Assembly: GCA_963848965.1 (NCBI GenBank)
Contig: CAWKFG010000004.1
Span: forward strand, 544,001 to 608,000
DNA: 64,000 nt
Origin: an uncultured bacterium
Lineage (GTDB): Bacteria; Babelota; Babeliae; Babelales; Babelaceae
Reading direction: 5' to 3'
Shown here: positions 26,930 to 61,873 of the stretch, in pieces
Layout of the letters: each line of letters starts with the position of its first letter
Numbering within the stretch: position 1 is the first letter of the stretch
Notes under the pieces: model-generated
Database searches by the model: none
What the model saw: the letters and a program-made list of their open reading frames with translations, nothing else
Told to the model about the DNA's origin: nothing
Position numbers and translations under genes: made by a program

Positions 26930-26969
26930 TATGTGTCCTACAAATTTTAGGATTTATTTTTTAGAGTAA

Positions 26970-26996
26970 GGGCTGTTGCGATTTAAGCAACAGCCC
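26970..26996 (-). terminator. Hairpin between paralogs 3 and 2
   Basis: GGGCTGTTGC/GCAACAGCCC 10-bp stem with only a weak U-tract. Confidence 0.55.
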
Positions 26997-27003
26997 GCTT
27001 CCG

Positions 27004-30000
27004 TTAGTGTGGTGGTTGCTCGGCACTTGTTTGTTTTGCATATTCAAGAACGAGTTTTTTGATCTCTAATGCTCGAGCGTCCATGTCTCTTAACTGATGT
27101 TTTTTATATCTTTGAGCGTACGTCATATTTCCTGTACCTGTATTAAAAGTAAGTGCCATACCTCCATTATACTTACCAGGTCGCACGATATCAAACACAG
27201 TGCTACCCTCTTTATTTTTAAGCGAAAGATTTACTCTACGCGTAGAGAGTAATAACTGCACGATTTCCTTATGATTATTATAGCATGCGATTATTAAAGG
27301 AGTGTCCGCTTCTAAAATAACACAGACTGCCTGACTTGTAGGGTTCATAAAAATATACGCTGGCATCTGCGAAGAATATGTCTTAAGTCTTACTTGAGCA
27401 TTAACATCTGCACTTGCTTCAAGTAGAAGCTTTACAATATCTGCTCTTCCTATAGAACATGCTTTTGCTAAAGGAGTAAGGCCAGCTTCATCTAAAATAT
27501 TTGTACGTGCACCAGCTGCTAGTAAAAGCTGTACTATTTGAGCGTGGCCTCTATCACATGCACACCGTAAAGGAATCATTCCTGGACTGCCCTGAGCATT
27601 TACATCTATTCCTTTTTTAATAAGATAGTGCACTATTTCGGCTTCTCCTACTGCACATGCTAAGCAAAAGAAATTGATAACATCTTTCTTAGTTACATCT
27701 ACCTTAATAGCTTCAGAAAGTAAAAGCTCTCTAAATATTCTTCTACTTTGCAAATACTTTTCATCAAAAATATGCAGCTCAGAAATTCCTTCTTTATAAT
27801 GAGCATCTAATGAAGCACCAGCTTCAAATAAAACCTTTACTATCTCCTTATGTCCGCTTAAAGCAGCAAGCAAAAGAGCTGTATGAGCATGATCACACGT
27901 CTGATTAGGATTTGCGCCCAAATGTAGTAATAATTTTACTGCCTCTAGATTGCCTTGTTCTGCTGCAATAAGAAGAGCTGTATGACCATCAGCAATTTTA
28001 CCATCTACGGGTACACCAGCTTGTACAAGTTGATATACGATAGCAGAATGATTGTTAACAATTGCCGAATATAATGCCGTCAATCCTTTAACATCAGAAG
28101 TATTTACATGAGCGCCTGCTTTTATAAGCGCTGCTACTACATCTGCATATCCTTCTTCAGCCGCATGCATTAACGCAGTACACTTTTCCTCATCTTGAGC
28201 ATTCACATTCGCTCCACGCTTAAGAAGTAAAGAAACAATCTCAAGGTTTCCTTTATTTGCAGCATCTTGTAAAGCAGTCCATCCTTCACTATCAGCCTGA
28301 TCAATAGAGGCGCCTGCTTGCAATAAAAGTTTTCCTGCTTTTTTATTACCTACCCGGCAGGCAACACCTAGAAGATGAACACCACTATAGTTGTGATTTA
28401 CGTCTTTTATATAGCCTGTAATAAAGCGTGGTAGGACAACGCCTTCTTTGTCATGTTCACAAAGTGCTGAAAATATGCTAACACTCTCTTCATTACCACC
28501 CATTTCTACAGTACCTGTATTTAATAAAAGCTGTGCTAATGCAAGTTTACCTGCTTCTAAGGCAGACAGTACTATCTTAGCAGGAATACAAGTATAATAG
28601 TTTAGAAGAGTAATAACGATCGCAGAATCATTACATTGTACAGCATATTCTAAAGGATCAAGAAGCGCTTTTTCCTGCTTTTTTTGTGGATAAGGCATAA
28701 CATTAAGAAGCATCTTAAGCATATCTGCTCGACCTAATCCAACAACCTGATTAATAAGGTATATTTTATCATCATCATGCAACTTCCTTAAATGAAATTT
28801 AAATCTATCAAAATAAGTTGCAATTTCAGCAGGAACAGACATTTTTGCTCCTAAGCTTAGATATATAGATAACTCTTGCCGCAGTTTTCGTTTTGCAGAT
28901 TCTTTAACAAATGGAGGAACTTCTTGCATCTCAAGCAGTTGCATAATACTTTCACCAGCTTTATTTACAAAGCATACAACCGCCCCTGCAGCTATAAGAG
29001 CTTGTGCAATTTCATAGTGCTTGTATTTTACTGCATACATTAAAGCAGTATTGCTTATTACATCTGCCTGATTTACCTTGACACCTTGTTTTGCAAGAAG
29101 CATACGAACCATATCACTCGCTCCTTGACAAGCTGCAATCATAAGAGCAGTCTGCTTTGATTTGTCACATGCATTTACGTCATCATTACTACGTTGAACA
29201 GCTTCTTTTTCACCAAAATGAACAGCTATCATTAACGGAGTACACCCTTCTTCTTCGAGCTTCTTTTGTACAAGCTCTTTAGTTTGTAAGTGTTGTACTC
29301 TCAGAGCTTCTTCTTTTTTCCTTTTCTCAGGAGTTTCTAATAGATTGCATAAATGAGCATTATATTTTGCATGATCTAGAGCACTAGCACCATCTTTATC
29401 TTTCAGATGTATATTTGCACCAGCATTAGAAAGCAGTTCAACAATACTATAACGCTCTAACTTTACCGCTCTCATAAGCGGAGTTTCTCCTCTTTCATAA
29501 GCATAATCAATACCAAAAGCACAGTATTTAAGCATGATTTTAACTATACTTTCATCTAAGCTTTGAATAGCTTCAAACAGAAGTTGTCCTGCTTGCTCTG
29601 GTGTAAGTTCAATAATATGTTCTTGAAAGATAAGTTCCACTGTGCTTACTTCATGCTTTGTTATGGCTTTGCGGATAAAACTATAGACAGTGTACAGTGC
29701 TTTTTGGGCAAGAAGTCGTGCACGTGCGTACTTTTTATGTGTAAGCACAGCCGTAAAATTATGCTCTATACTAGATCCTCTCACTTTTCCGCTTGCAATA
29801 AGCAAAGATACCATTTCACTATCTTCATTATCAAGTGCAATACAAAGAGCATCTCTATTGTTACTATCTTCAGCTTGAGTAGATGCTCCTAAAGCAAGTA
29901 ATTGAGATACTGCATTATACTTGCGCTCTCGCACTGCATAGAGTAAAGGAGTACAGCCATCCTTACTCATAGCTTGATTATTAAATTGCGAAATGATCTC

Positions 30001-31794
30001 TAAAGGAACTTTGCTTACATCATTCTTCATAATATAATCATGCAAAAGAACAAACTTTCGTTGCCGCTCATTATTTTCTTTTGTCCTCTTTTCCTTAAGA
30101 AGAGCACGATACTCTTGTGCCGCTTGCTCTATTACCTCTCTTACTGAAGGAAGTATTTTTGAGTTCTGATGTACATAATGATCAATGCTCTGAGCATACT
30201 GCGTTTGAAAACAAGGATTCGCTCCTTTTTGAAGAAGTACTTGCACAAGTTCAAGATTATTATTATCTGCAGCAAAAAAGAGAGCTGTTCTTCCTACGTT
30301 ATCTTGCTCATCTATTTCATGTGATACTACAAGCTGTTTTACCTGTGCTGTATTATTGCTATACGCTGCATATAAAAATTCGCTTGCTGCATAGTCTTTC
30401 ATCCAAGTATTTTTACGCTCAATAACACGCTCTATACATTTTAAAAGAGTCTGATCTGCATTCTTTTTAGCAAGAGAAAGCGTCGATTCACCTCTGTTAT
30501 TCTTCAAAGTATAACCTGCATGAGCATTTAACAGAAGCTCGACAAGAGGTATTTTATTGTGAAATGCAGCATGAATAAGAGCACTGTCTCCTGCCTTATC
30601 TTGAGCGTCTATTTCCGCTCCATATTTTATAAGTAATTCTACTATAGCCTTATAGAACAGAGTTCCTTTAGGATCTACCTGAGTCACTGCATGCATAAGT
30701 GCAGTTCTTCCAAAAGCATCTTTTGCATTAAGTTCAACATGCCATTGAAGAAGTAAGCTTACTATATCAACATGTTTATTTATAACAGCAAGCATTAAGG
30801 GAGTTATTCCTTCATTATTCTGAGCATTTAAAGTTTCAGGACTTATAAGTCCTAAAACACAGTAAAAGTCTCCTGATTGTACTGCATAATGAAGCACTGT
30901 ATTACGTTTGTCATCACACGCTGTCTTTGAAGCACCATATTCAAGTAAAGTATTTACCAAACACCAGTCTCCAGCCTTTGCACACATCATAAGAGGAGTA
31001 ATGCCTCTTTCATTTGCTATAGTAGGATCTGCCCCTTTTTCTAGAAGCTCTATCACTTTTGATACATACCCTTCCTCTACAGCCTGTATAAGCTCTGGCT
31101 TTCTTTCTACTTTCTTTACCGTATTCAAGCCTTTTGCTTGCTGTACAGCAAATGATTCAAGGTTTGCCAAGGGATAGTCTTTGTGTTGTATTTCTGGATA
31201 TACCGTAAGTATATGCATACTCTCTTTGACACCAGGACATCCAAGCACAAAAAGTCGCAGTGGCGTTATCAATCTACTTACAGGCAAAGGAATCATCTTA
31301 ACACGATATACCTTATAGCTCTCACTTGTACGTTCCTTACGTTCTTTTACCTGCAATTCGCTTTCTTGGTGCATTCCCTTAATATAGTGAGCTATATCAT
31401 GGATGTTCCAATTACACGGAAAAAAAGTTTTTGGCGCTTTACAGACTTTTCCTCGATAGATAACATAGCCTGTATGAAATGAATAGATATCTCCTAATGC
31501 AACGATCCACAGTCCTGGCGTTAATTTGCATAACGTAGCACCGTTTCCAAGATCTATCTTTTCTGCAGTAGTACCATACCAGTGGAATCCTTTAACACAT
31601 ATCTCTTTGGTCAAAGGATCAGTGAGTATCTGATAATTGCAAATATGGGCAAGCACTTTCTGTAACGAGATAGTATACGGAACACTTTCTAACTTAAGAG
31701 TAACACTCATGCTATCTTCAGGAGCTTTTTCCATAGCACTTACAGAAGAAATGCAGAGAAAAAGACTCAAGACGAGCGTCAATAATTTCTTCAT
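27004..31794 (-). CDS. Secreted EndoU-like nuclease / ankyrin-repeat protein, paralog 3
   Basis: Signal peptide ...VSA-MEKA; LAH...KGFH...PKTFFPCNW...ILTVYP; more than 20 ankyrin repeats. Confidence 0.85.
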   Translation of the reverse strand: MKKLLTLVLSLFLCISSVSAMEKAPEDSMSVTLKLESVPYTISLQKVLAHICNYQILTDPLTKEICVKGFHWYGTTAEKIDLGNGATLCKLTPGLWIVALGDIYSFHTGYVIYRGKVCKAPKTFFPCNWNIHDIAHYIKGMHQESELQVKERKERTSESYKVYRVKMIPLPVSRLITPLRLFVLGCPGVKESMHILTVYPEIQHKDYPLANLESFAVQQAKGLNTVKKVERKPELIQAVEEGYVSKVIELLEKGADPTIANERGITPLMMCAKAGDWCLVNTLLEYGASKTACDDKRNTVLHYAVQSGDFYCVLGLISPETLNAQNNEGITPLMLAVINKHVDIVSLLLQWHVELNAKDAFGRTALMHAVTQVDPKGTLFYKAIVELLIKYGAEIDAQDKAGDSALIHAAFHNKIPLVELLLNAHAGYTLKNNRGESTLSLAKKNADQTLLKCIERVIERKNTWMKDYAASEFLYAAYSNNTAQVKQLVVSHEIDEQDNVGRTALFFAADNNNLELVQVLLQKGANPCFQTQYAQSIDHYVHQNSKILPSVREVIEQAAQEYRALLKEKRTKENNERQRKFVLLHDYIMKNDVSKVPLEIISQFNNQAMSKDGCTPLLYAVRERKYNAVSQLLALGASTQAEDSNNRDALCIALDNEDSEMVSLLIASGKVRGSSIEHNFTAVLTHKKYARARLLAQKALYTVYSFIRKAITKHEVSTVELIFQEHIIELTPEQAGQLLFEAIQSLDESIVKIMLKYCAFGIDYAYERGETPLMRAVKLERYSIVELLSNAGANIHLKDKDGASALDHAKYNAHLCNLLETPEKRKKEEALRVQHLQTKELVQKKLEEEGCTPLMIAVHFGEKEAVQRSNDDVNACDKSKQTALMIAACQGASDMVRMLLAKQGVKVNQADVISNTALMYAVKYKHYEIAQALIAAGAVVCFVNKAGESIMQLLEMQEVPPFVKESAKRKLRQELSIYLSLGAKMSVPAEIATYFDRFKFHLRKLHDDDKIYLINQVVGLGRADMLKMLLNVMPYPQKKQEKALLDPLEYAVQCNDSAIVITLLNYYTCIPAKIVLSALEAGKLALAQLLLNTGTVEMGGNEESVSIFSALCEHDKEGVVLPRFITGYIKDVNHNYSGVHLLGVACRVGNKKAGKLLLQAGASIDQADSEGWTALQDAANKGNLEIVSLLLKRGANVNAQDEEKCTALMHAAEEGYADVVAALIKAGAHVNTSDVKGLTALYSAIVNNHSAIVYQLVQAGVPVDGKIADGHTALLIAAEQGNLEAVKLLLHLGANPNQTCDHAHTALLLAALSGHKEIVKVLFEAGASLDAHYKEGISELHIFDEKYLQSRRIFRELLLSEAIKVDVTKKDVINFFCLACAVGEAEIVHYLIKKGIDVNAQGSPGMIPLRCACDRGHAQIVQLLLAAGARTNILDEAGLTPLAKACSIGRADIVKLLLEASADVNAQVRLKTYSSQMPAYIFMNPTSQAVCVILEADTPLIIACYNNHKEIVQLLLSTRRVNLSLKNKEGSTVFDIVRPGKYNGGMALTFNTGTGNMTYAQRYKKHQLRDMDARALEIKKLVLEYAKQTSAEQPPH

Positions 31795-36371: not shown

Positions 36372-36635
36372 ATGAATAATAAACATAAGAGTATATTAGA
36401 AGCGATATTCAAACTACCAACTCAAGCAAATATAAAATGGAAAGATATTGAAGCATTATTTATACATTTAGGTGCTCGAGTAGTAGAAGGTAGAGGATCA
36501 AGAGTAAGAATAATACTTAATGGTATTCCTGCTAACTTTCATAGACCTCACCCTCGCCGAGAAGCAACTAAGGGAGCAGTAGAAGCTGCACGAAGATTTT
36601 TAAAAGATACAGGAGCTTACAATGATAAAATATAA
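36372..36635 (+). CDS. hicA: HicA toxin
   Basis: Motifs NIKWKDIEALF, EGRGSRVR and FHRPHP. Confidence 0.92.
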   Translation: MNNKHKSILEAIFKLPTQANIKWKDIEALFIHLGARVVEGRGSRVRIILNGIPANFHRPHPRREATKGAVEAARRFLKDTGAYNDKI

Positions 36636-36954
36636 AGGTTATGTAGGAAAAATAACATACGATAGCACTTTAAAGGTATTTCATGGAGATGTTATAGGTT
36701 TAAACCATGTGATTACTTTTGAAGGAACAACTCCGAAAGAAATAGAACAAAGCTTTCAAGATGCTATTGACGATTATCTTGAAATGTGCCAAGAAGAAGG
36801 TATACAACCAGAAAGGACTTTTTCTGGCAAGTTTATGCTAAGGCTTTCTCCTGATCTTCACGCAAAACTTGTTCATGAAGCAACGCTTCACAATAAAAGT
36901 CTTAATGAATATGTTGCTGATACTTTAAGCTCTCTACATAAATCATCTAAGTAA
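36622..36954 (+). CDS. hicB: HicB antitoxin
   Basis: Motifs YKGY, ITFEG, AIDDYL, FSGKFMLR and SLNEYV; overlaps hicA. Confidence 0.92.
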   Translation: MIKYKGYVGKITYDSTLKVFHGDVIGLNHVITFEGTTPKEIEQSFQDAIDDYLEMCQEEGIQPERTFSGKFMLRLSPDLHAKLVHEATLHNKSLNEYVADTLSSLHKSSK

Positions 36955-37218: not shown

Positions 37219-40200
37219 TTATAAACCCGAAAGTTCTTCACTTGCAATTGGTCTTGCTGTTATTGGTGATGAAGCATTTAGTAACTGTTCAATTCGGTTA
37301 TACAATTCCTTTTGTTCTTTATCTTGAGAGCGTGCGCTCAATAGCCTTGCTCTATGCACTGGATCTTGCTTAAGGAATGCATTTTTTCTTCGCAGAGTAA
37401 AGAATAAAGCTAAATATCGAACAACTGGTACATGCCCTTGAGAGACTGCAAAAAGCAGAGCTTCTTGTAATACAGAAAGTTCTACTTGTTTTTCCAATAG
37501 CAGCCTCTTTACTTCATTTACATCTCCTTTTATTGCTGCAAGCTGCAACGGATTATCTAGTATAGTGCCAAGAGTCTCGATAAGTATTGGATCGGTATTG
37601 TCTACTAAAGCACCGTAATTTAAGAGCAATCGTACAATAGCTGTATGACCCTTTTTTACAGCGCTTTGCAAACTTTGTTCTAAACCATTAATACTATTGA
37701 TATCTGCAAGAGTCAAGAGAGCATGAACAACATCTGTATAGCCAAACGTTGCTGCAATGTGCATAGAGGTCTTTCCTTGCTGATTTTTAGCATTAAGAGA
37801 GGCTCCTTGCTTTAATGCTTGTCTAACTTGTTCAACGTCACCCATTGCTACGGCAGTAAGCAACTGCGCATCAAACATTGCTGCATCAAGCTGTGCTGGT
37901 ACTCCCCTACATAGTGGACATCTACTACCAGATTTTATCACAGTACTTACACAGTGTGGATGAAATACATGACCACACGGTAAAGCCATTAACTTTTCAC
38001 CCTGTTGGTATTCTTCAAGACAAATCGTACAGTTTTTTGCATCTTTGTTATCTTGGTTATTGCTCTTTGATACAGCAGGTGAACTGGCAAAATTTTCCGC
38101 CTTTTCTTGTGAGCTTCTTGGTTCTGCCTGAAAAGCTTTATGTGTGCGGATGCTCTTAGTATGTTCCCGCAGTACATGCTCTATGTATTTATACCGATCT
38201 TCCTCACCGCCATACGCCTGTGCGCGCTCTAATAATACTATGACATGACGCAAAGCAGTTACTTCAAGAAAATTACTTGCCCCTTGGTTTATAATAAGGG
38301 GTATCAAGTATTCAACAATATGACCATGTCCCTGTCCAATAGCAAGCATTAATGCCTCTTGTAAAACAAGATAGGAAGTTTGCGCTGTTGCCATTGCTTT
38401 TACCGTAGTATAATTGCCTAGCACTGAGGCCAAAAGTAATTCTTGCTTACCAAGTATTTCTTGTATTATTTCTATAACCAGAGAGTCAAAAACGTTTAAT
38501 TGTGCACCATGTTGCAATAACATTCGTATACTATCTAATCGCTTTTTTTCTAAAGCACGATGTAAAGGTGCTTGTCCCCATTGGTCTTGCAGATTAATTT
38601 TAATAAGCGGCTGTGCTAAAAGAACTTGCACAACGGGGTTATGCCCATGCCAAACAGCTATATGTAACGGGGTTGCACCATGATTATTGTGAGCGTTAAC
38701 ATCACTATGAGGAACTGCTAACAATGCTTGAACAATAGCTTTATGTCCCCAAGATGCAGCAAGCCAGAGTGCGGTTTCTCTATTACTATTTTGTGCTTGA
38801 ATATCTGCTCCATCAGCTAACGCCCGTTGCACTTCACGGACATCCCCTTGTTGAGCAGCTTGTAGAAGCCTTAAATTAGCTGATTCTTGAGAAGTTGAGA
38901 TCAGTGGCACTTGAGACTGTGATTTATTTTGAAAATTCTCTCTATCAGACTGCACGCTCTTAGTTGGCAATAAGTCTGTTTTTGTAATAGCTGTAAGCGT
39001 ACTCGATCCTACTGCAGGGCTTTCTTGGATCGATTGCTTTTCAATACTTGAAGAAACAGAAGGCATATCCCTTTCTAGAAGGCTCGCCTTTATTTGTGGC
39101 TCTTCGTGAATTTTTTGTATAAGAGGAACTAGGTCTATCAATAACTGTTCTATATGTTTATATTGTTCCTGCCTTTTTAATTTTCCTATATCTTGATAGA
39201 GCTTATCTTGATTGTGCTTTTCTTGTTTCAACAATTCTAACTTAGACTGAATTAATTTTAAGCGCGGATCTTTCTTTTTTTCTGACGACTCTTTAAAGAG
39301 GCCTTCCCCATCTCCACCGAACAGTTCCCCTTTACCCAAGGCATTCATCCTTTCAATTGTCTCCATCTCACTTTTTAATTTTTTTATACCCATTTCTAAT
39401 TTTTCAATACTATTTTTTAGTTTTTCTTGATAGCGTTGCTCTTCTGCTTTAGTCATAGTATATGTTGAAAGTAATTGTACATGGAACAACGCCTCTTGAT
39501 GAATAAAATCCTTTGCCTCTCGTTTTACCAGAAGAGGAACAAGGTATTCTATAACAGGAATATGTCTTTGCCCTATTGCATAAAGAAGCGCTTTTTGAAG
39601 GAGCCCACTATGTGTTTGTTCTGTAGCTAAAGCTTTTACTTGATCAACAGAACCAAGCACTGAGGCTAAGAAGAGTGGATGGGTACTAAAGAGCTTTTTC
39701 AAAGCTGGTATAACATTGTTATGGTCAGCAGGGCTGAGCAACGCTCCATGGCGTAATAGAAGTTGTACAAAACTCCATTTTTCCATTTTGACAGCCAAAG
39801 ACAAAGAGTCTGTTCCAATGCACATACCAGGAGTAGCAAGCAGAGCCTTAACAATTCTTTCATAACCTTTATTAACAGCCACATCTACTAGCGCTGTTTG
39901 CGTACTCGTACTATCAATATCCGGAATGGCAAGAAATGCCTTAACAATTCCTTCATAACCTTGCGCTGTAGCTAAAAACAATGCTGTAGATTTTTCTTTA
40001 TTTAGAGCATTAACATTAATACCGGGAGCAGCAAGGAGAGCTTTTACAATAGTTTCATGTCCATTTTGAGCAGCTAAATGTAATGGTGTATAGCCCTCTT
40101 TACTTTGAGCATTAATATCAATAGTAGGAGCTGCAAGGTCATCTAATGAATTAACAGCCCTATCATGAATAGCAAGAATACTTCTCACAACTTTCTCATA

Positions 40201-41445
40201 ACCATATTGAGCTGCATAGCGTAATATTTCCTCTACTCTGCTATCTTGAAAATTACTAAGAAAGAGCGATTCTGGCTTTGCGTTATCCAGTTTATTACTA
40301 TTGATTTCAGCGTATTCTAAAAACATTTTTATCGTATTTATATCACCACTTTGTACCGCAAATTGCCAAGGAGTCCATCCATGCTTATCTTTACCATTAA
40401 CCTTAATAGAGGGAACAGCAAGAAGTGCTTTCACTATACCTTCATATTTTATACCGGCCAATCCTGAACCCCTTGCCGCCAGGTGCAAAAGGCTCTGTCC
40501 ATCATTATTTTCAGCATTAACCTCGATTGCTGGTACTGCAAGAAGTACTTTCATTATACTTTCATAATTATGGCTATAGACTGAACTGCTTACTACCTGA
40601 TGCAAAGGAGTATTTCCATAGTTATTTTTAGTATTAACCTTGATCGTAGGAACAGCTAAAAGTGCTTTCATTACATCTTCTCGCTTTAGCGATACTGCAT
40701 TATGCAAGGGTGTACTCCCATAGCAATCTTGAACATTAACTTCAATAGAAGGTATTTCAAGAAGAGCTCTCACTATTCCTTCATCTCTACGTGATGCATT
40801 ATGCAAAGGAGTACTACCACCCTTATCTTGAAGATTAACGTTGATAGTTGGCACTGCAAGAAGCGCCCTCGCTATGCCTTCATCTTCGCTCGCTGCATAA
40901 TGCAGGGGAGTACTACCACGCTTATCTTGAAGATTAACGTTGATAGTTGGCACTGCAAGAAGAGCTCTCACTATACCTTCATCACCCTTTAATACTGCAT
41001 CATGCAAAGGAGTCCTTCCTTCTATATCTTGAACATTAACATCGATAGTGGGAGCAGCAAGAAGAGCTTTCACTAAACTCGCCGCTTTATTAGAGTAACA
41101 TGCTATATGTAGAGGAGTCCGCCCCCTATCCTCAACATTAACATCTGCACCAGATTTAATTAAATCTTGGATAATAGAGAGGTCACCATCATCTTGTACT
41201 TCATACATAAGCAACTCGCCAAGTTTCTGAGCGCTCAGTTGCTTCGACTCAATCTTATCTTTAATACTTTTTTTACGCGTCTCCTCATATTTTTTTAGCT
41301 CCTCTTCGCTCGGCCCTTTCTCAGACGGCCTGTAAGACATAGCCCTCCACGGTACTTGATGAGCAGAACGCACTTTCTCTCTAAACATGCCATTAATAAA
41401 GGCGCTTGACACAAATAAAGTAAAAAGTAGCAATTTTCTAAGCAT
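37219..41445 (-). CDS. Secreted ankyrin-repeat protein with a RING-H2 finger
   Basis: Signal peptide ...ING-MFRE; many ankyrin repeats; CTIC-x14-CGHVFHPHC-x10-CPLC at 37909-38031. Confidence 0.9.
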   Translation of the reverse strand: MLRKLLLFTLFVSSAFINGMFREKVRSAHQVPWRAMSYRPSEKGPSEEELKKYEETRKKSIKDKIESKQLSAQKLGELLMYEVQDDGDLSIIQDLIKSGADVNVEDRGRTPLHIACYSNKAASLVKALLAAPTIDVNVQDIEGRTPLHDAVLKGDEGIVRALLAVPTINVNLQDKRGSTPLHYAASEDEGIARALLAVPTINVNLQDKGGSTPLHNASRRDEGIVRALLEIPSIEVNVQDCYGSTPLHNAVSLKREDVMKALLAVPTIKVNTKNNYGNTPLHQVVSSSVYSHNYESIMKVLLAVPAIEVNAENNDGQSLLHLAARGSGLAGIKYEGIVKALLAVPSIKVNGKDKHGWTPWQFAVQSGDINTIKMFLEYAEINSNKLDNAKPESLFLSNFQDSRVEEILRYAAQYGYEKVVRSILAIHDRAVNSLDDLAAPTIDINAQSKEGYTPLHLAAQNGHETIVKALLAAPGINVNALNKEKSTALFLATAQGYEGIVKAFLAIPDIDSTSTQTALVDVAVNKGYERIVKALLATPGMCIGTDSLSLAVKMEKWSFVQLLLRHGALLSPADHNNVIPALKKLFSTHPLFLASVLGSVDQVKALATEQTHSGLLQKALLYAIGQRHIPVIEYLVPLLVKREAKDFIHQEALFHVQLLSTYTMTKAEEQRYQEKLKNSIEKLEMGIKKLKSEMETIERMNALGKGELFGGDGEGLFKESSEKKKDPRLKLIQSKLELLKQEKHNQDKLYQDIGKLKRQEQYKHIEQLLIDLVPLIQKIHEEPQIKASLLERDMPSVSSSIEKQSIQESPAVGSSTLTAITKTDLLPTKSVQSDRENFQNKSQSQVPLISTSQESANLRLLQAAQQGDVREVQRALADGADIQAQNSNRETALWLAASWGHKAIVQALLAVPHSDVNAHNNHGATPLHIAVWHGHNPVVQVLLAQPLIKINLQDQWGQAPLHRALEKKRLDSIRMLLQHGAQLNVFDSLVIEIIQEILGKQELLLASVLGNYTTVKAMATAQTSYLVLQEALMLAIGQGHGHIVEYLIPLIINQGASNFLEVTALRHVIVLLERAQAYGGEEDRYKYIEHVLREHTKSIRTHKAFQAEPRSSQEKAENFASSPAVSKSNNQDNKDAKNCTICLEEYQQGEKLMALPCGHVFHPHCVSTVIKSGSRCPLCRGVPAQLDAAMFDAQLLTAVAMGDVEQVRQALKQGASLNAKNQQGKTSMHIAATFGYTDVVHALLTLADINSINGLEQSLQSAVKKGHTAIVRLLLNYGALVDNTDPILIETLGTILDNPLQLAAIKGDVNEVKRLLLEKQVELSVLQEALLFAVSQGHVPVVRYLALFFTLRRKNAFLKQDPVHRARLLSARSQDKEQKELYNRIEQLLNASSPITARPIASEELSGL
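40801..40985. repeat. Near-identical 99-nt tandem ankyrin-coding repeats
   Basis: CTTATCTTGAAGATTAACGTTGATAGTTGGCACTGCAAGAAG occurs twice, 99 nt apart. Confidence 0.85.
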
Positions 41446-42649: not shown

Positions 42650-43561
42650 TTATGCTAGGGTATTCTGCTTTTCTTTGATCAGGTTAGTGAGCACACTTAT
42701 AGCATGACTTAAAAATCGGCAATGTTTTTCAAGCAATTGAGCACTTTGTGGTAGACGATCAACTGTAGAATCAGATTTTACTGCATATATGATGAGACCA
42801 GCTAAACATACTATACTTGTTGAGAAAAATGTGGCAAAAGAGGAAGTAACATAAGGTTCATAACGGGCATCTCCGCCTGCCCATATCATTGTTGCAATCA
42901 TAACAATAAATAAGAGTGGTACGGGAGAAAAAACTGTACCAAGTGTATAAAAATCTTTTTTATCGTGCCCCGCTATATGTTTTTTAAGTACTATGCGACA
43001 AGCATCAAGCTGATTATAAAGCTTTTGGAGATTATTTTTCAAAGTAAGTATATCTTCTGTTGATAATTGTAAGCGAGTACGAAGCATATCATGAGTAACT
43101 GGTCCTACTATTGGGCTCTCTAATACCTGACTCCAATAAGCAGGTTTTACTTGAAGTAAATTATGTAAAAGAGCAGCAAAAGGAGCATAATCTCTCTTTC
43201 TCAACGTTGTTTCAAAAGGTCTTTCTTTTGTATACTCTGTCAGAGCTTCTTGTAGTTTTCTTGAAAGTTCTGTATGTGATTTTGCAGTTTTAAAATGTGC
43301 TACTATCATCTCCAGTCTCTGCGTATCAGCAGGAAAGATATGCTCTTGTTCCATAAAGCTCTCTACAATCTTTTGCGCTATTTCTGGAGTTAATCCATAG
43401 AGCCTTACAAGGTAGTTAAGAGCTGGATCATTTCCTTCAAGATATTCACAAATTTTAACCATAATATCTTTTGGCAAAGAGGAAACCTTGGGTTCTTTTT
43501 CCATAGCCAGAAGAGAAAAGCCTATGCTTATGGCACATAAGCTTTTTTGCCATAATTTCAT
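42650..43561 (-). CDS. Secreted F-box-like protein with two C-terminal TM segments (paralog A)
   Basis: ...LLA-MEKE; SSLPKDIMVKICEYL; hydrophobic hairpin near the C-terminus. Confidence 0.7.
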   Translation of the reverse strand: MKLWQKSLCAISIGFSLLAMEKEPKVSSLPKDIMVKICEYLEGNDPALNYLVRLYGLTPEIAQKIVESFMEQEHIFPADTQRLEMIVAHFKTAKSHTELSRKLQEALTEYTKERPFETTLRKRDYAPFAALLHNLLQVKPAYWSQVLESPIVGPVTHDMLRTRLQLSTEDILTLKNNLQKLYNQLDACRIVLKKHIAGHDKKDFYTLGTVFSPVPLLFIVMIATMIWAGGDARYEPYVTSSFATFFSTSIVCLAGLIIYAVKSDSTVDRLPQSAQLLEKHCRFLSHAISVLTNLIKEKQNTLA

Positions 43562-43717: not shown

Positions 43718-44908
43718 GTGACCATGAAAGCACAATTAAGCACCCTCGGATTCATAGTCTGTAGTGCACTAGCTTTTATACAAGCAATGGAGAGCATGCC
43801 TCGTATAAACCCATGTTATCCAGCAAATGAGTATAGATATACTATTAGCATTGCCGGTATTTCTTGCAAAGATTTCAAGGATAAGGTACGAGGCTGTGTC
43901 TTAGGGGCAGCTTTAGGTGATATGCTGGGAGCGCCAACAGAATTTATCTCTTCACGTGAAGCTATTAATAAAGTATATCCACCCTCTGGCATTACAGGTA
44001 TTGAGAGCTTTAAGGAAAAAGACTTTACAAAGGATGCTTCTGGCAAAAAAGTAGCTCCCTATACTGACGATACTGCCATGAGTATTCTTGTTTTAGAAAC
44101 TATTACATGTTTTAGCAGATCGCAGTTTAACCCTCCATCACAATGGAACATAAATGATGCTATGCATGATCTTGCATTGAGCTTTGTAAAAGATATGAAT
44201 AACCCTGCCGGTTGGGCACAACAAAGGCGAGCTCCTGGGCTTACCTGTTTACGTAATGTACAAGAGCTTGCCACACGGTTTGAAGCAATGGCCAGGAAGC
44301 ACAATAAAGATCCTCGTTTTTGGGCAGTTGGCAAACCAACAGAAGGTGGTTGCGGATCTGTTATGCGAGCACATCCCTTTGGCCTTATTTTTGCAGGAAA
44401 TATAGAAAAAGCAATAGAATGGGCAGTAGAACACTCCAAAATTACTCATGGAGCTCCTATGGCTTTAGCCGCCTGTGCCGCAATGGCATGCGGTGTCGCT
44501 CATGCTCTAAGAAACGAAAAGCCAGAAGCAGTTGCTCAAAGAATGTATGAAGTTGCAAAAAAATATGATAGTTATACAGCACAGCTTATAGAACGAGCAA
44601 TAGAATATGCCTATGATGCTCGCAAGCCAAGTGATGAAGTATTTAAAGAGTTTCAAGGATGGGCAGCTCATGAAGCTATTGCAGCTGCTACTTATGCATT
44701 TTTAAAGCATCCAGATGATCTGAAAAAAGCTATTCTCTTAGGAGTTAATACCCCTGGTGATAGCGATAGTATTGCTTCAATGGCAGGAGCTCTTGTAGGC
44801 GCTCGCATTGGCGCACAACAGATACCACAGGAATGGCTTGAAGTACTTGAAGGGAGTCAAAGACTTATACAGCTTGCTGATAATGTTGCAAATTTATATA
44901 AGAAATAG
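43718..44908 (+). CDS. Secreted ADP-ribosylglycohydrolase (ARH/DraG family)
   Basis: Motifs GAALGDMLGAPTEF, YTDDT, GCGSVMR and GDSDSIASMAG; signal peptide ...IQA-MES. Confidence 0.9.
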   Translation: MTMKAQLSTLGFIVCSALAFIQAMESMPRINPCYPANEYRYTISIAGISCKDFKDKVRGCVLGAALGDMLGAPTEFISSREAINKVYPPSGITGIESFKEKDFTKDASGKKVAPYTDDTAMSILVLETITCFSRSQFNPPSQWNINDAMHDLALSFVKDMNNPAGWAQQRRAPGLTCLRNVQELATRFEAMARKHNKDPRFWAVGKPTEGGCGSVMRAHPFGLIFAGNIEKAIEWAVEHSKITHGAPMALAACAAMACGVAHALRNEKPEAVAQRMYEVAKKYDSYTAQLIERAIEYAYDARKPSDEVFKEFQGWAAHEAIAAATYAFLKHPDDLKKAILLGVNTPGDSDSIASMAGALVGARIGAQQIPQEWLEVLEGSQRLIQLADNVANLYKK

Positions 44909-44911: not shown

Positions 44912-45793
44912 CTAGCGCTTTTTTGCAATAAGTACATCAATAAAATCGAGCGTCGCCTTTAACGATGTACATTGATTCTGTAAAAGTTGAATAAGTGCTG
45001 GATAACTTGTAGGAATTTGTACGTTAAGACGTGCATCGTCTTCTTTGATGAAAATAACATAAACCATATCACCAAATACCAGCATAAATTGTAAAAGAAG
45101 AAGCCATCGTGAGAATGAAGCATATGGTTCTTCTAAGGAACCACACGCTATCGATGTAGCGCCTACAAAAAGCCATAGAGGCATTTTTAGAGTAAGCGGA
45201 GCACCATTTCTAAGACGGTGTGTTCTTTCAAGAGCCTGCTTTCTAGAGATAACAATAGAAAGAAAGTTTTGCATTTCAGTATAAAAAGCTTGCATAGTAT
45301 GACGCATCTCATGCAATCCTTCAAGTGTGAATTCACGTAACTTCTCATGCTTAAAGATCTCTGCTCGTCCGGAAGAAGAGAGTTCAATGAGTCTTCTAAA
45401 ATCGGTTAAATCTGTCTTATAAAGCGCAGTTTTCAGTGGAGAAAATAGACGATATGCATTAAGTGCAGCTTTAATCTTTGCTGATACATCAGCGTGAGGT
45501 TTAGCTTTTTGAAAGCTTTTTAATATGATTTCATCTGCTTTTGCGGTTGTTGGATAAGCCTTCGTTTTCTTAATAAAGCTTTCTACAACTTTTTTAGCAG
45601 TAGTTGGAGTAAGTCCATAAATTCTCATAAGATAATTAAGCGCTCGATCATCACCCTCAAGGCACTCAAGAATAAGCAAAATAGCATCCTTAGGTAAATC
45701 TTCAAATGAAAGCTTTGGCTTTTCCATAGAGAATATAGAAAAAGTAGCACATGTTAAAAAAGAGAACAACCCTAATCTTTTAAAAATAGTCAT
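44912..45793 (-). CDS. Secreted F-box-like protein with two C-terminal TM segments (paralog B)
   Basis: ...IFS-MEKP; EDLPKDAILLILECLEGDDRALNYLMRIYGLTP is closely similar to paralog A. Confidence 0.7.
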   Translation of the reverse strand: MTIFKRLGLFSFLTCATFSIFSMEKPKLSFEDLPKDAILLILECLEGDDRALNYLMRIYGLTPTTAKKVVESFIKKTKAYPTTAKADEIILKSFQKAKPHADVSAKIKAALNAYRLFSPLKTALYKTDLTDFRRLIELSSSGRAEIFKHEKLREFTLEGLHEMRHTMQAFYTEMQNFLSIVISRKQALERTHRLRNGAPLTLKMPLWLFVGATSIACGSLEEPYASFSRWLLLLQFMLVFGDMVYVIFIKEDDARLNVQIPTSYPALIQLLQNQCTSLKATLDFIDVLIAKKR

Positions 45794-53646: not shown

Positions 53647-53811
53647 TGTTAAGAAATTTTATAGCAAGTTCCTCTTTATTATAGCATAATGCATTATTTT
53701 TGCCAACTACACTCAGCTTATTATCTCATAGATACGCTCATATATTGACAATGCGTATTCCTTCTTAGCATGCTAAAATTACTTTCATTTCATAACAAAA
53801 AAGGAGTGTAT

Positions 53812-54786
53812 ATGATTCACTTTTTTCTCAGCATACTTGCTTTATGTGCATTTTCTTGTCTGAGCGCAGAGCAGAGTAACGAGCAGCAAGGCATACCTTT
53901 AGAACAAGAAGTATCTACACGAAGCTGCAAAAAACACTGCTCTTGTAAAAGAAAGAGAAAGTGTACACAGTTTCAGGGCTTTGTTCCATGCAATGGACTT
54001 CAGCTTTTTACAACGCTCCAGGGGTGCGGTAAACAAACAATTGTATTTTTACATGGCTTTCCTGCAGATTCACAAGTGTGGAATCAACAAAGACAAGCAT
54101 TTAATAACTGCTATAGAACATTAGCATATGACCAAAGAGGATTTGGTAAATCAAGTCAACCTGCTGGACCCTATGACATTGCTGCATACGTACAAGATCT
54201 CCGTTGCGTTTTAGACCACTTTGGGATACAAAAACCGATTCTAGTTGGTCATTCGTTTTCAGGAGAAGTTGCTATTCAATTTGCTTCTCTCTTTCCAGAT
54301 AGAGTATGTAAGCTTGTACTTGTGAGCACCAGCGCTAAACTTGTTGCGAGCCCTGATTTTCCATTTGGCGCATCTCCTGAAGCCATAGGACAAATTGTAG
54401 CACTTATTCAAAAAAATCTACGTGCAGGGCTCACTGCATTTGTTAGTGCCGGCTTTCCAGAACCTAATACCGAAGCTCTACAACAACAAGTGATAGAACA
54501 AGGCTTACAATCAACTCAGGCAACTGTTCTAAGTTTCTTCCGTGATACAAGTCCTACTGATGTACGTCCTCTGCTTCCTTCAATTACTGTTCCAACACTT
54601 ATTGTTCATGGAACAAGTGATAACATAATTCCCTTCCCAGCAGGACTATTTTTACGAGACAACATTAGAAACTCTCAATTTGTTGCCTTTGAAGGTAAAG
54701 GTCATTTTCTTTTCTTGACCGATCCTACAAAGTTTACACAGGTAATGACAAATTTTTTACGTACAACCCCTGCTTGTTGCAGATAA
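53812..54786 (+). CDS. Exported alpha/beta hydrolase, copy 1
   Basis: AAGGAG then ATG 53812; motifs HGFP, DQRGFGKS, GHSFSG, HGTSD and GH; signal peptide and a Cys/Lys-rich linker. Confidence 0.88.
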   Translation: MIHFFLSILALCAFSCLSAEQSNEQQGIPLEQEVSTRSCKKHCSCKRKRKCTQFQGFVPCNGLQLFTTLQGCGKQTIVFLHGFPADSQVWNQQRQAFNNCYRTLAYDQRGFGKSSQPAGPYDIAAYVQDLRCVLDHFGIQKPILVGHSFSGEVAIQFASLFPDRVCKLVLVSTSAKLVASPDFPFGASPEAIGQIVALIQKNLRAGLTAFVSAGFPEPNTEALQQQVIEQGLQSTQATVLSFFRDTSPTDVRPLLPSITVPTLIVHGTSDNIIPFPAGLFLRDNIRNSQFVAFEGKGHFLFLTDPTKFTQVMTNFLRTTPACCR

Positions 54787-55017: not shown

Positions 55018-55992
55018 ATGATTCATTTTCTTTTCAGCATACTTGCTTTATGTGCATTTTCTTGTCTGAGCGCAGAGCAGAGTAACGAGCAACAAGGCAT
55101 ACCTTTAGAACAAGAAGTATCTACACGAAGCTGCAAAAAACACTGCTCTTGTAAAAGAAAGAGAAAGTGCACACAGTTTCAAGGTTTTGTTCCATGCAAT
55201 GGACTTCAACTCTTTACAACAGTACAAGGATGCGGTAAGCAAACAATTGTATTCTTACATGGCTTTCCTGCAGACTCACAAGTGTGGAATCAACAAAGAC
55301 AAGTGTTTAATAAGTGTTATAGAACGTTAGCATATGATCAAAGAGGATTTGGAAAATCAAGTCAACCTACAGGACCTTATGACGTTACTGCATATGCACA
55401 AGATCTTCGCTGTATCCTAGATCACTTTAGCATACAAAAACCGATTATAGTTGCCCACTCATTTGCAACAGAAGTTGTACTGAAATTTATTTCACTTTTT
55501 CCTGATAGAGTCTGTAAACTTGTGCTTGTCAGCGGAAATGCAAAATTCCTTGCAAGCCCAGACTATCCTTTTGGTGTACAGCCTGAATTTTTACAACAGT
55601 TAGTAACACTTGTACAAAGAAGCTTACTTGAAGGACTCACTGCATTTGTAAATCTTTCTTTTCCTGAACCTAATACTGAAGCTTTAAAAAAGCAAGTTCT
55701 TGAACAAGGTCTTCAGTCAAGCCAAGCCACTGTTTTAAGCTTTGGCCAAGGAATAGCTCCTACAGATGTACGTTCTGTTCTTCCGTCAATCACTATTCCA
55801 ACGCTCATTGTTCATGGGACAAACGATAACATATTCCCTTTCCAAGCAGGGCTATTTTTACGCGATAACATCAGAAACTCTCAATTTGTTGCCTTTGAAG
55901 GTAAAGGCCACTTTCCTTTCTTAACTGATCCTACAAGGTTTACACAAGTAGTAGAAAATTTCTTACGCTCAACTCCTGCTTGCTGCAGATAA
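55018..55992 (+). CDS. Exported alpha/beta hydrolase, copy 2 (tandem duplicate)
   Basis: N-terminus almost identical to copy 1; nucleophile elbow AHSFAT. Confidence 0.88.
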   Translation: MIHFLFSILALCAFSCLSAEQSNEQQGIPLEQEVSTRSCKKHCSCKRKRKCTQFQGFVPCNGLQLFTTVQGCGKQTIVFLHGFPADSQVWNQQRQVFNKCYRTLAYDQRGFGKSSQPTGPYDVTAYAQDLRCILDHFSIQKPIIVAHSFATEVVLKFISLFPDRVCKLVLVSGNAKFLASPDYPFGVQPEFLQQLVTLVQRSLLEGLTAFVNLSFPEPNTEALKKQVLEQGLQSSQATVLSFGQGIAPTDVRSVLPSITIPTLIVHGTNDNIFPFQAGLFLRDNIRNSQFVAFEGKGHFPFLTDPTRFTQVVENFLRSTPACCR

Positions 55993-56005: not shown

Positions 56006-56037
56006 AGAAAAAGAGGCATGAATATGCCTCTTTTTCT
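56006..56037. terminator. Bidirectional terminator
   Basis: AGAAAAAGAGGCAT-GAAT-ATGCCTCTTTTTCT between convergent genes. Confidence 0.8.
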
Positions 56038-56064: not shown

Positions 56065-56799
56065 TTAATCTAGAGCATTAGTGCTTGAAAGAGCCTTTTC
56101 TGGTTGATTAAGGAGTGATGCAATTGACATACGTAAAGCCTGGCTTGGTGCAACAGATCGCTCTGTTCGCGTAGGTAAAGTAGGTATATCACGACTTGCT
56201 TCTTCTAGAGCCTGAAAAAATCTTGGCTCAGTTCCACGCGCTTGCTCACTTTGAGCTACACTTGCTAAAAAAGATAACGCAGGTACTTGCTCTATTACAC
56301 CTGATTCAATAATTTCGTCTTTTTCTAGCATCTGTGCTTTTTCATGCCGCTCTTTATGCTCATTTAATCGGCCCAAGCTATTAAAAGCACCATTACAATA
56401 ATCACACTTATAAGATTTTTCTTCTTGTCCTTGATGTACTAATACAACGTGTGTTTTAAGATCATTTGTTGCAAAAAAAGTATGTCCACAGTCATCACAT
56501 GTATAACGACGTTTCTTTTCATGTACCCGTTTCATATGTGTTCTTACGTTTCCTTGCTGGGTAAATTCTTTTCCGCATATAGTACAAGGATATTTTTTGC
56601 CTGTATGCGCGTTCATATGAATTTTTAAAATACCTTTGGTTCCAAAAGTTTTACTACATACTTCGCATGGATAGGTTTTTTTACTCCCATTTTCTTGTAT
56701 AGTTTGTTTGCGCTCAGCAATAGAAGGACTTATCTCCATCCCATATGTTTTTGCAAAAATGCACATCAGCATTATAATACCATAAAGTACTTTCATCAT
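56065..56799 (-). CDS. Secreted eukaryote-like protein with four C2H2 zinc fingers
   Basis: Four Y-x-C-x2-C-x3-F-x8-H-x3/4-H fingers; TGKKYP linker; signal peptide ...TYG-MEIS. Confidence 0.88.
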   Translation of the reverse strand: MMKVLYGIIMLMCIFAKTYGMEISPSIAERKQTIQENGSKKTYPCEVCSKTFGTKGILKIHMNAHTGKKYPCTICGKEFTQQGNVRTHMKRVHEKKRRYTCDDCGHTFFATNDLKTHVVLVHQGQEEKSYKCDYCNGAFNSLGRLNEHKERHEKAQMLEKDEIIESGVIEQVPALSFLASVAQSEQARGTEPRFFQALEEASRDIPTLPTRTERSVAPSQALRMSIASLLNQPEKALSSTNALD

Positions 56800-57011
56800 T
56801 ATCCTTATATAATATAAAATAATATTTTATTTAAGATTTGCTTAAGCAATGCAAAGTACTTATTATATTATCTATTTTAAAATTTTAGTCAAACCCCAGA
56901 GTACGTTATCTGCTTTTGTACGAGGATAAATACCTATTTTTGCTTTCGCTTTATACCTATGGTATAGTAAAAGAGAAATTATTTATACGCTCTTTGATTA
57001 TGTAATAAACG

Positions 57012-60029: not shown

Positions 60030-60184
60030 ATCTAGCCCCCCTATCTGATAGAACAAACACCATTTCTAGTGTAGTCACTATCCTTTTTTTGTCAATTTAA
60101 TTTAGCAACTTGCAAGCTTTTAATATAAGCATTATAATTACATTAATTACAAATAATCTATCTAATAAGCTCGGGGGGGCCACT

Positions 60185-61873
60185 ATGAAATTTATATATA
60201 GATATATTTTTATACTACTTTGTACTTCTTATGCGTATGCAATGGAACAGGATAAAGAACAGAAGTCGCGAGTACCATCTTTGTTTACTCTATGCCAAAG
60301 ACAAGCAATTACTGTTCTTTCTCAAGGACGGCTCAGCTTACGACAATTAAGAGAGCTTTTAGTTCTTTATAAAGATCTGCCTGCTAATATACTGACCCCT
60401 ATTATTTCATCGCTTGCTAATAATAACATCCTTCAACAAAACCATGGAGAAATTCCGCTGCTACTTGCTTTAGCAGAGTATTGTGCTTATCAAAGTAACA
60501 ATACCTGTTTGGAAAAAAACGCTCAAGAGATAAAAGAAGAAAGAAAAAAAGGTGAAGTACATAAAGGGGTAAGCAGAGATCACCTTCTTAGACGTCTTAA
60601 TCAAGCAATGGAACTGCCAGATACGTGTCCTTATGCAGCCCTTTTTATTACTCTTATCTCTAAAGCTCTTTACGCTGTCCAAGTACAAGATAGAGCATTT
60701 GAACAACCTTTGGTTACCGCCTGCCTTTATGATTATAAAACAGTTGTTGATTACCTTATTGCTCACCACACACGATTTCTCGACTTTACACATGCTGTAA
60801 TACAGCTTATGGAAAGAAACGAAGAAAAAGCTTGTATACTTATCAATCTTTTGAAAGATCGTAAAAAAAAGTTACAGACTCAAAGTCCCTTCTGCTTTGA
60901 TAGTAATAGTCTCTTTATACACGCCTTTACACACCGCTATACAAAGGTTCTACATTTGTTAGAAGCAGACATAGATTTTAAGGAGCTCCCTCTTGGATTC
61001 GTTCAGACTAATTATCTTTTTCTTAATAGATGGGCAGAAGATTGTATTTTAAGAGGAGATATATCACTATGCTCTCAGCTTATTGAGCGCATTAAAGCAA
61101 AGTGTGATATTAATCGTGTGTTGCTTCAAGTACCGGAATCTGGTTTTGCACATTCAACTCTCTTGTCAGCTGCTTTGACAAAAGAGTATGTAAAACTCGC
61201 TGCTTTATTACTTTCTCAAGGCGCAAATCCTAATAATGCATTACATGGAATACCTCTGTTGTATCAGACATGTCTACAAAATAATATTCTCCTTACTCAG
61301 CTGTTACTTGAATATGGTGCTAATGTTAACGCACGTTACCAACCAGAACAAGAAAATGAAGATACAGGTAATACAGCATTGCATATAGCAGCTCAACAGG
61401 GAAATGTAGATTGCGTTCGACTGCTTATAGAACATGGAGCACATATTACTATCAAAAACGAAGCAGATGTTACACCTTTACATAAAGCATGCTTCTATGG
61501 ACACAGTGAAATTGTGCAAGAACTTTTACAAAGAGGAGCAGAAGTAAATGCTCAAGATATAGAAGAAAGCACACCATTACATACCGCTTGCAAGCGAGCA
61601 GACCTTGAGCTTGTTAAGCTCTTACTTAAGCATAAGGCAGAAGTAAATAGTAAAACCGCTCTCGGACATACACCTCTTCATTCAGTGCTTTATGAACTTT
61701 TAGCAGATGATAGCAAAAAAGATCTACAAAAGCAGGTTATAGAGCTCCTTTTAGCTCATGGCGCTCAAATAGATGTAATGAACAATGATGATGATACTCC
61801 TTTAGATCTTGCTCAAGACTATGAAGATCCTGAAATCTTAGCTCTTTTTAAGGACAAAGGAAAAAAAGAGTAA
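60185..61873 (+). CDS. Secreted ankyrin-repeat protein with an N-terminal BC-box (SOCS-box-like)
   Basis: Start ATG 60185; ...AYA-MEQD; VPSLFTLCQRQAI; C-terminal ankyrin repeats. Confidence 0.85.
   Translation: MKFIYRYIFILLCTSYAYAMEQDKEQKSRVPSLFTLCQRQAITVLSQGRLSLRQLRELLVLYKDLPANILTPIISSLANNNILQQNHGEIPLLLALAEYCAYQSNNTCLEKNAQEIKEERKKGEVHKGVSRDHLLRRLNQAMELPDTCPYAALFITLISKALYAVQVQDRAFEQPLVTACLYDYKTVVDYLIAHHTRFLDFTHAVIQLMERNEEKACILINLLKDRKKKLQTQSPFCFDSNSLFIHAFTHRYTKVLHLLEADIDFKELPLGFVQTNYLFLNRWAEDCILRGDISLCSQLIERIKAKCDINRVLLQVPESGFAHSTLLSAALTKEYVKLAALLLSQGANPNNALHGIPLLYQTCLQNNILLTQLLLEYGANVNARYQPEQENEDTGNTALHIAAQQGNVDCVRLLIEHGAHITIKNEADVTPLHKACFYGHSEIVQELLQRGAEVNAQDIEESTPLHTACKRADLELVKLLLKHKAEVNSKTALGHTPLHSVLYELLADDSKKDLQKQVIELLLAHGAQIDVMNNDDDTPLDLAQDYEDPEILALFKDKGKKE

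Follow-up and report, generated by a model that had tools for sequence, protein, structure and literature searches.

The zinc-finger gene at 56065..56799 on the minus strand of the stretch shown here encodes, as judged from its sequence, a single-copy and divergent member of a large accessory family whose proteins combine a leader with tandem C2H2 finger arrays. The stretch, hereafter the window, comprises 64,000 nucleotides of an uncultured bacterium of the Babelaceae (assembly GCA_963848965.1, contig CAWKFG010000004.1, positions 544,001 to 608,000). The gene lies on an 873-kb contig of a Dependentiae metagenome-assembled genome (MAG) of 1.73 Mb in 5 contigs, estimated to be 88.7% complete. 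The leader-bearing C2H2 family of the Dependentiae, which are obligate parasites of protists, is undescribed and effector-like, and it has probably expanded lineage by lineage in the phylum. For the window protein itself we propose that a Sec-exported product of about 224 amino acids (aa) would bind nucleic acid, most likely host DNA, through its fingers and would engage a host partner through a conserved tail module, an account to which we give an even chance. More broadly, its sequence makes it a plausible host-directed nucleic-acid-binding effector. A previous reading of the window from its letters alone (the sequence-only reading) had presented the protein as secreted and as a candidate nucleomodulin mimicking a host transcriptional repressor. 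The gene and the parts of its product are the following.

56065..56799 (-): coding sequence of the zinc-finger protein, an uninterrupted open reading frame (ORF) of 244 aa from the first ATG, or 243 aa from the second ATG at 56796.

56740..56799 (-): leader, residues 1-20, with K3, hydrophobic core V4-A16, K17 and T-Y-G, followed by M21-E22; assigned to the 'small residue-Met' class.

56344..56673 (-): four tandem C2H2 fingers, residues 43-152, from Pfam and a sequence search of the Protein Data Bank (PDB).

56506..56517 (-): KKRR, residues 95-98, in the linker of fingers 2 and 3, a possible nuclear-import patch.

56197..56277 (-): conserved tail module, residues 175-201 (LSFLASVAQS...EPRFFQALEEA), 17 of 27 residues identical in the ortholog P0005.

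56107..56130 (-): MSIASLLN, residues 224-231, the eh1-like motif of the sequence-only reading.

The classical C2H2 criterion applied here combines the pattern C-x2-4-C-x12-H-x3-5-H, a core Phe and Leu, and a score above the Pfam gathering cut-off. The window protein shows all of these in four units of the form C-x2-C-x12-H-x3/4-H, at residues 43-65, 70-93, 99-122 and 130-152. Pfam assigns both zf-C2H2 (PF00096; E=1.2e-17, 63.7 bits against a cut-off of 25.2) and zf-C2H2_4 (PF13894; E=2e-19, 68.8 bits against a cut-off of 27), and the nearest relatives of solved structure by sequence are poly-finger proteins (E=1e-36 to 1e-28), namely the designed six-finger Aart (E=1.2e-36; 2i13), ZNF568 (5v3m) and CTCF (7w1m). 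These matches, too strong to be due to chance, bear out the four tandem Kruppel-like fingers recognized earlier. At helix positions -1, +2, +3 and +6 the fingers carry T, G, I, I (finger 1), Q, G, N, T (finger 2), A, N, D, T (finger 3) and S, G, R, E (finger 4). The linkers read TGKK, EKKRR and QGQEEKS, one being near-canonical, one of the same length but basic, and one longer. The protein thus resembles the Krueppel/TFIIIA-type C2H2 proteins in finger pattern, Zn ligands, core Phe and Leu and tandem arrangement, and differs from them in being bacterial, in bearing a Sec-type leader, in lacking a KRAB, BTB or SCAN domain, and in its three non-canonical linkers and orphan tail. Ros/MucR proteins, bacterial DNA binders that also coordinate zinc through Cys2His2, consist of a single larger, non-classical domain, have no leader and act inside the bacterium, unlike the four classical, PF00096-scoring fingers of the window protein.

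The genome that contains the window has 80 PF00096 matches, located by pattern scan in about 18 ORFs, 14 of which begin with a leader; the remaining four resemble fragments or split genes. A tandem cluster at C1:233097-241884 (the C1:233-242 kb cluster) comprises nine same-strand genes with 2-12 C2H2 fingers each (seven with 5-12); their leaders are nearly identical, their linkers read HTGEKPY, and the first finger is preceded by a basic RKR...KRQKK stretch. A second cluster, at C1:611851-619643, holds five finger genes of up to 1209 aa and 10 fingers. Basic clusters flank the fingers in several family members. Across the phylum, a PF00096 match at E<=1e-5 was found in at least 46 of 261 genomes and at least 29 of 145 genera, a count that is a lower bound, at most 31 candidates having been scored per genome; genome G002, with no match in this count, nevertheless has 16 matches to the window protein. 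The best-scoring loci of other genomes, a sample that is not random, yielded 56 distinct ORFs with at least two fingers, 52 of them 5'-complete. By a crude hydropathy rule 42 of these 52 are leader-like, several of the misses visibly being leaders too, and 23 of the 42 carry a small residue-Met leader. A scan with the paralog alignment recovered 5 loci, its patterns being very specific and uninformative on other phyla.

Several side observations concern the two clusters. One 63-aa frame with a TAG in the C1:233-242 kb cluster may be a decayed copy, and ORFs 612717-613367 and 613304-614116, which overlap by 64 nt, may be a single gene split by a frameshift. In three genes of the C1:611851-619643 cluster the product has an acidic-hydrophobic C-terminal tail of the type D-[IV]-L-Q-F-L, resembling an activation domain. 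We considered a C-terminal LQFL-type motif as a general secretion tag and rejected it, as it occurs near the C-terminus of only 8 ORFs, three of them from one paralog group.

The nine-gene cluster also bears on what the arrays may do. In 49 finger units of 28 residues taken from it, Shannon entropy was highest at +3 (2.95 bits), +6 (2.88) and -1 (2.69) and approximately zero at the four Zn ligands and the core Phe and Leu. Positions -1, +3 and +6 are the canonical base-contacting helix positions in C2H2-DNA complexes. Because variability peaks at these DNA-contact positions, the cluster bears, at the level of its sequence, the signature of paralogous arrays diversifying their DNA targets. With its HTGEKPY linkers and its KZNF-like variability at -1, +3 and +6, it is a further point of likeness to Krueppel/TFIIIA-type proteins.

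The leader of the window protein has the n-h-c layout of a cleavable Sec signal. Such a signal usually has a positive n-region, a hydrophobic core of 7-15 residues and small neutral residues at -3 and -1. In the window protein, judged by inspection with the help of a crude hydropathy rule, the core spans 13 residues, T18 stands at -3 and G20 at -1, in agreement with the signal peptide claimed by the sequence-only reading. A lipoprotein reading was rejected: the residue before C13 (position -1) is Met, and the ortholog has Gly in place of C13. Hydrophobic N-termini are frequent in this genome, in 676 of 1,436 ORFs by the same kind of crude rule, in line with C. destructans (Chromulinavorax), for which the available text of its description gives signal peptides in 44% of coding sequences, with ankyrin proteins enriched (PMC6561590). 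The window protein and its relatives resemble the Sec-leader ankyrin and other eukaryote-like proteins of Dependentiae in phylum, in kind of leader and in the presumed Sec export of eukaryote-type domains.

A subset of these leaders shares a distinctive ending. Directly after the core, a small residue is followed by Met, and then usually by Glu or Gln, in 176 of the 676 leader ORFs versus 29 of the 760 others. In C1:1-400 kb, 95 leader-bearing ORFs have no second hydrophobic segment; we annotated all of them with Pfam and scored a leader as small-Met if [GSACT]-Met immediately followed its hydrophobic core. Before the count we removed two obvious false leaders (NTP_transferase and ribosomal L14), and 43 ORFs had no Pfam hit and stayed unclassified. 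Small-Met leaders were present in 28 of 32 proteins with eukaryote-type domains (Ank, WD40, C2H2, LRR, RING, Mito_carr) and in 1 of 18 bacterial-type proteins, these being DegP (two), S41, M23, PBP, GH3, SBP_bac_3, metallophosphatase, NAGPA, DUF5122 (two), S9, macro, rhodanese, HAD, AAA, Pyr_redox and acyltransferase, with export not established for the last three. The split has a Fisher p of 1e-8, which is overstated because paralogs are not independent. It is also visible within the window, where small-Met leaders occur, for example, at 5780-6529(-), 16925-21901(-), 27004-31794(-), 42650-43561(-), 43718-44908(+), 44912-45793(-) and 60110-61873(+). By its sequence the leader of the zinc-finger protein, T-Y-G then M-E, belongs to this class. 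After the small residue the sequence continues mostly as ME, MQ or MKR; the Met may be an original start codon in front of which a leader was placed, or it may give the protein an N-terminus that the host cytosol leaves stable.

Beyond the fingers and leader, the protein has a tail of about 90 aa, for which relatives are scarce. A word-indexed homolog search returned only the window protein itself, and 40 related genomes contained no ortholog, their matches being confined to the finger region. Against 261 genomes of the phylum the tail matched only itself, the best other match (E=0.006 per genome) being noise. Against 1.84 billion representatives it gave four matches, of which one, P0005, is a true relative; P0002-P0004 were set aside as long multi-stretch repeat matches, the sequence inspected being that of P0004. 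An ESM Atlas search with the tail produced no usable match, a search of genome contigs with the ortholog pair produced no locus, and the metagenome locus L051, which encodes a eukaryote-like BTB/multi-finger protein, was set aside as unrelated. P0005 is a protein of 208 aa encoded on a 141-kb contig and 56% identical overall; it keeps the leader (15 of residues 2-22 identical), all 16 Zn ligands and the tail module, and it ends at the position aligned to residue 203, a stop known from the protein sequence alone. This comparison marks the module at residues 175-201 as the part of the tail under constraint.

A low-confidence AlphaFold model folds the tail into three helices and predicts the module as two short amphipathic helices, 173-187 and 191-203; the best-scoring part of the model is a helix spanning residues 2-18 of the leader. 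The tail, described earlier as low-complexity, is not so in the usual sense. The KKRR stretch, the LSFLASVA (residues 175-182) and the MSIASLLN pointed out by the sequence-only reading are all present, the last exactly at the stated 56107-56130. The FFQALEEA helix may resemble Sin3-interaction or acidic activation motifs.

These elements suggest a route from the bacterium to the host. The genome encodes three secretins and two T2SSE ATPases but only one S26 signal peptidase, with the SecA gene within the window itself; searches of the genome, which is 88.7% complete, gave no match to VirB4, FHIPEP, DsbA, DsbB or Thioredoxin_4. With secretins present and no type III or type IV marker found, the most economical route would run from Sec through signal peptidase to a secretin-dependent step or vesicles. 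Without Dsb in the periplasm, the finger cysteines would stay reduced. Under this scheme the protein would be exported by SecA/SecYEG and cut between G20 and M21 by the single signal peptidase I, leaving a mature protein of about 25 kDa. It would then be released into the host cytoplasm by the secretin/type II-like machinery or by outer-membrane vesicles, would enter the nucleus by virtue of its size or through the basic finger linker, and would bind a site of 9-12 bp. KKRR fits the K-K/R-x-K/R import pattern, and K95, K96 and R97 are kept in the ortholog, R98 being replaced (KKRP). Cleavage, host delivery, nuclear entry, DNA as ligand and an effect on transcription are thus all steps that we infer for the window protein. 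The three secretin genes, which are unusually long (open frames of 1153, 818 and 796 aa), adjoin one another at C4:764526-775000.

A number of points weigh against this proposal of a host-directed DNA reader. A C2H2 domain alone is no proof of host targeting, and a type II or vesicle substrate would have to reach the host nucleus, a passage not known for any Dependentiae. The hypervariability belongs to the paralogs, not to the single-copy window protein, in which 8 of 16 contact positions are identical to those of the ortholog and are not more conserved than the rest. The leader call comes from inspection and the crude hydropathy rule, KKRR is only partly conserved, and AlphaFold, run on a single sequence, gave a model of low quality (mean pLDDT 44), from which only helix positions were taken. 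Within the array itself, Ile at both +3 and +6 of finger 1 is unusual for base contacts, and the three linkers deviate from the HTGEKPY of the paralogs, a combination that makes RNA or protein binding possible.

This last point leads to the reading of the protein as an effector acting in the host cytoplasm, with fingers that bind RNA or protein and not nuclear DNA. Besides the non-canonical linkers and the hydrophobic contact positions of finger 1, weak Pfam matches below the cut-off to zf-C2H2_jaz (dsRNA-binding; E=0.0025) and zf_UBZ (ubiquitin-binding; E=0.00021) point in this direction, as does the intracellular location of Dependentiae, C. destructans being reported, in the text available, to replicate in the host cytoplasm near mitochondria (PMC6561590). 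The best matches by far are nonetheless to the DNA-binding arrays Aart, ZNF568 and CTCF, the contact residues of fingers 2-4 are polar, as is typical of DNA readers, and the paralogs vary precisely at DNA-contact positions, so we regard an RNA or protein ligand as unlikely.

The protein might also serve the bacterium itself, either as a periplasmic, surface-bound or tethered binder of nucleic acid or zinc, for instance in pilus- or secretin-linked DNA uptake, or as an anchored regulator of bacterial genes. In our own proposal the cutting of the leader and the release of the protein are predicted steps, and a genome with three secretins and two pilus/type II ATPases would offer a setting for such a role. 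On the other hand, a 13-residue core is short for a stable anchor, and the leader is of the type common to ankyrin, WD40, LRR and RING proteins, not that of housekeeping exported enzymes. The family, moreover, is patchy and tandemly expanded, unlike core machinery; no partner gene adjoins the zinc-finger gene, and the valS neighbourhood lacks a finger gene in all five same-family genomes examined. We accordingly assign own use a low probability, comparable to that of an RNA or protein binder.

Far less probable is the repressor mimicry put forward by the sequence-only reading, in which MSIASLL would act as an eh1 motif recruiting Groucho/TLE or, in a weaker form, a Tup1-like corepressor of a protist host. 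As described in a paper on the motif, the eh1 consensus FS[VI]xx[IL][LM] typically begins with Phe, rarely with Tyr, and is otherwise poorly specified (PMC4943189). The window motif shares the S-I-x-x-L-L core, which fits S[VI]xx[IL][LM], and its placement in a predicted short helix near the C-terminus, but it starts with Met and so departs from the consensus. It is also missing from P0005, the only ortholog, so that the motif conservation by which the idea was to be judged is lacking, and no tail relatives were found in 260 other genomes of the phylum. In the proteome of the same genome (490,625 residues), the relaxed pattern [FM]S[IV]..[IL]L occurs 5 times, the strict F.[IV]..[IL][LIM] 118 times and the looser [FMILV]S[IVL]..[ILV][LIVM] 157 times. 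The distribution of the putative partner is a further difficulty. According to the same paper, Groucho/TLE is essentially confined to animals and a few of their close unicellular relatives, apart from one occurrence each in Naegleria and Trimastix. Tup-like proteins have a wider distribution that takes in Amoebozoa, and they might bind versions of eh1 that lack the Phe (PMC4943189). Cultured Dependentiae, according to the text cited above, infect amoebae and a chrysophyte (PMC6561590), and the likely hosts would thus mostly be without Groucho/TLE.

One observation in another genome speaks for the mimicry. A locus of genome G038 (L020, G038:C1:214955-218272) contains, in ORF 1306-2148(-), a 280-aa five-finger, leader-bearing protein that is convergent with lysS and whose tail reads QAL...SISSLL some 15 residues from the C-terminus, with an acidic end, to be compared with QALRMSIASLL in the window protein. 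The pattern SI[AS]SLL was, however, defined post hoc from both copies, with about 0.05 occurrences expected in the 56 other finger ORFs, BLASTP detects no tail similarity between the two proteins, and their genes are not syntenic. Because position 1 is neither Phe nor Tyr and the motif is absent from the only ortholog, sequence comparison leads us to reject MSIASLLN as an eh1 motif and leaves corepressor mimicry unsupported, the Tup form keeping a small probability. What stands of the original proposal is a bacterial protein with an export leader, a eukaryote-type C2H2 array and paralogs variable at DNA contacts, and on these sequence features 'candidate nucleomodulin' is a fair hypothesis.

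Contamination or mis-binning of a host gene, suggested by a domain typical of eukaryotes and by the eukaryote-like multi-finger match at L051, has a negligible probability, given the bacterial housekeeping neighbours on an 873-kb contig, the lack of introns, the bacterial ribosome-binding site and terminator, a base composition matching that of the genome and a Dependentiae-type leader. The zinc-finger gene is genuinely bacterial.

The signals around the gene agree with this. An AAGGA Shine-Dalgarno-like site at 56802-56806 is separated from the first ATG by 2 nt and from the second by 5 nt, and translation therefore probably starts at 56796, giving a product of 243 aa, in agreement with a 243-aa database entry that is identical to the window protein from its second ATG and with the start of P0005. 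Two further features flank the gene.

56006..56037 (strand not assigned): intrinsic terminator, likely bidirectional, a 14-bp perfect hairpin followed by a U run, common to the convergent hydrolase and zinc-finger genes.

56800..57011 (strand not assigned): divergent intergenic region of 212 bp shared with valS, containing the ribosome-binding site and presumably a promoter.

The hairpin lies 30 nt beyond the zinc-finger stop codon and folds with -23 kcal/mol (z=-6.85; none of 200 shuffles folds equally well); it emerged by direct folding, a simple promoter/terminator scan having listed no terminator here. Promoter-like matches in the intergenic region are not commoner than in shuffled sequence.

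The gene sits between a hydrolase gene and valS, in a region with secA, ftsZ, ftsA, hisS, tyrS, valS, ybeY and alr, among which giant ankyrin-repeat and ankyrin-RING genes are interspersed. All 5 of the same-family genomes examined keep the pair valS-ybeY, but what lies upstream of valS differs from one genome to the next. The absence of a shared valS neighbourhood, together with a GC content of 36.7% for the gene against 37.2% for the window, suggests that the gene was acquired or relocated in this lineage specifically, though not recently.

Other genes of the window deserve description in their own right. The convergent hydrolase gene belongs to a tandem pair of alpha/beta-hydrolase paralogs, at 53770-54786(+) and 55018-55992(+), which have identical leaders lacking the Met ending and, in both copies, a Cys/Lys-rich insert (CKKHCSCKRKRKC) directly after the leader. 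A run of giant leader-bearing ankyrin proteins of 1658, 1365 and 1596 aa extends over 16925-31794(-). At 37219-41445(-) lies the gene for a further ankyrin protein, of 1408 aa, whose RING finger makes it a candidate mimic of an E3 ligase. The ADP-ribosylglycohydrolase at 43718-44908(+) is probably exported, as its small-Met leader (IQA-ME) indicates. The leader-bearing ORFs at 42650-43561(-) and 44912-45793(-), together with about ten ORFs at C1:579-602 kb, carry an early L-P-x-[DE]-[LI] that resembles the start of an F-box; lacking Pfam hits, they probably represent an unannotated effector family. A HicB-family antitoxin gene lies at 36622-36954(+).

The known bacterial nucleomodulins either read DNA with modules that bacteria themselves invented, TAL repeats for example, or are enzymes acting on chromatin. 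The proposed logic of the C2H2 family is closest to that of the TAL effectors of Xanthomonas and Ralstonia, in that bacterial proteins with repeats variable at base contacts would be delivered to a eukaryotic host, and both form multigene families and have basic import patches, some of the paralogs also ending in an acidic-hydrophobic C-terminus. They differ in that the repeat folds are unrelated, that TAL effectors pass through type III secretion without a Sec leader, a system of which no marker was found in this genome, and that TAL function is demonstrated, the C2H2 family being known from sequence alone. In its most ambitious form, the proposal would be that Dependentiae possess a programmable, TAL-effector-like system, in which dozens of Sec-exported C2H2 proteins per lineage, with diversified contacts and varied tails (acidic-hydrophobic, basic, two-helix), rewrite the transcription of protist hosts. 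Small-Met leaders would mark the cargo of this system, and a mature start of Met-Glu, Met-Gln or Met-Lys might evade N-degron surveillance by the host. Taken as a whole we consider this system improbable at present, though well short of negligible.

The literature retrieved here does not anticipate such a family. Our search found no paper joining Dependentiae and C2H2, its combination of Dependentiae with 'zinc finger' returned only an irrelevant review, and neither C2H2 nor 'zinc finger' was found, among the matches listed, in Dependentiae papers on Babela, Vermiphilus or Chromulinavorax. The available text of the C. destructans paper names zinc a single time, as a metal that is transported, and makes no mention of C2H2 proteins (PMC6561590). 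The three 'zinc finger' passages in a 2021 nucleomodulin review concern host proteins or a MYND-binding domain (PMC7819608).

For the window gene itself, the analysis leaves a plausible effector whose conserved tail module is an orphan; the eh1 idea is to be dropped. A family of exported classical C2H2 arrays, widespread in a phylum of protist parasites, would add to TAL effectors a second case, independent of the first, in which bacteria target host DNA by a repeat code, here with the eukaryote's own transcription-factor scaffold. The family makes testable the effects of Dependentiae on host gene expression, the use of finger recognition codes to predict host targets, and hence hosts, of uncultured lineages, and the value of the small residue-Met leader as a computational marker of host-delivered proteins in the phylum.

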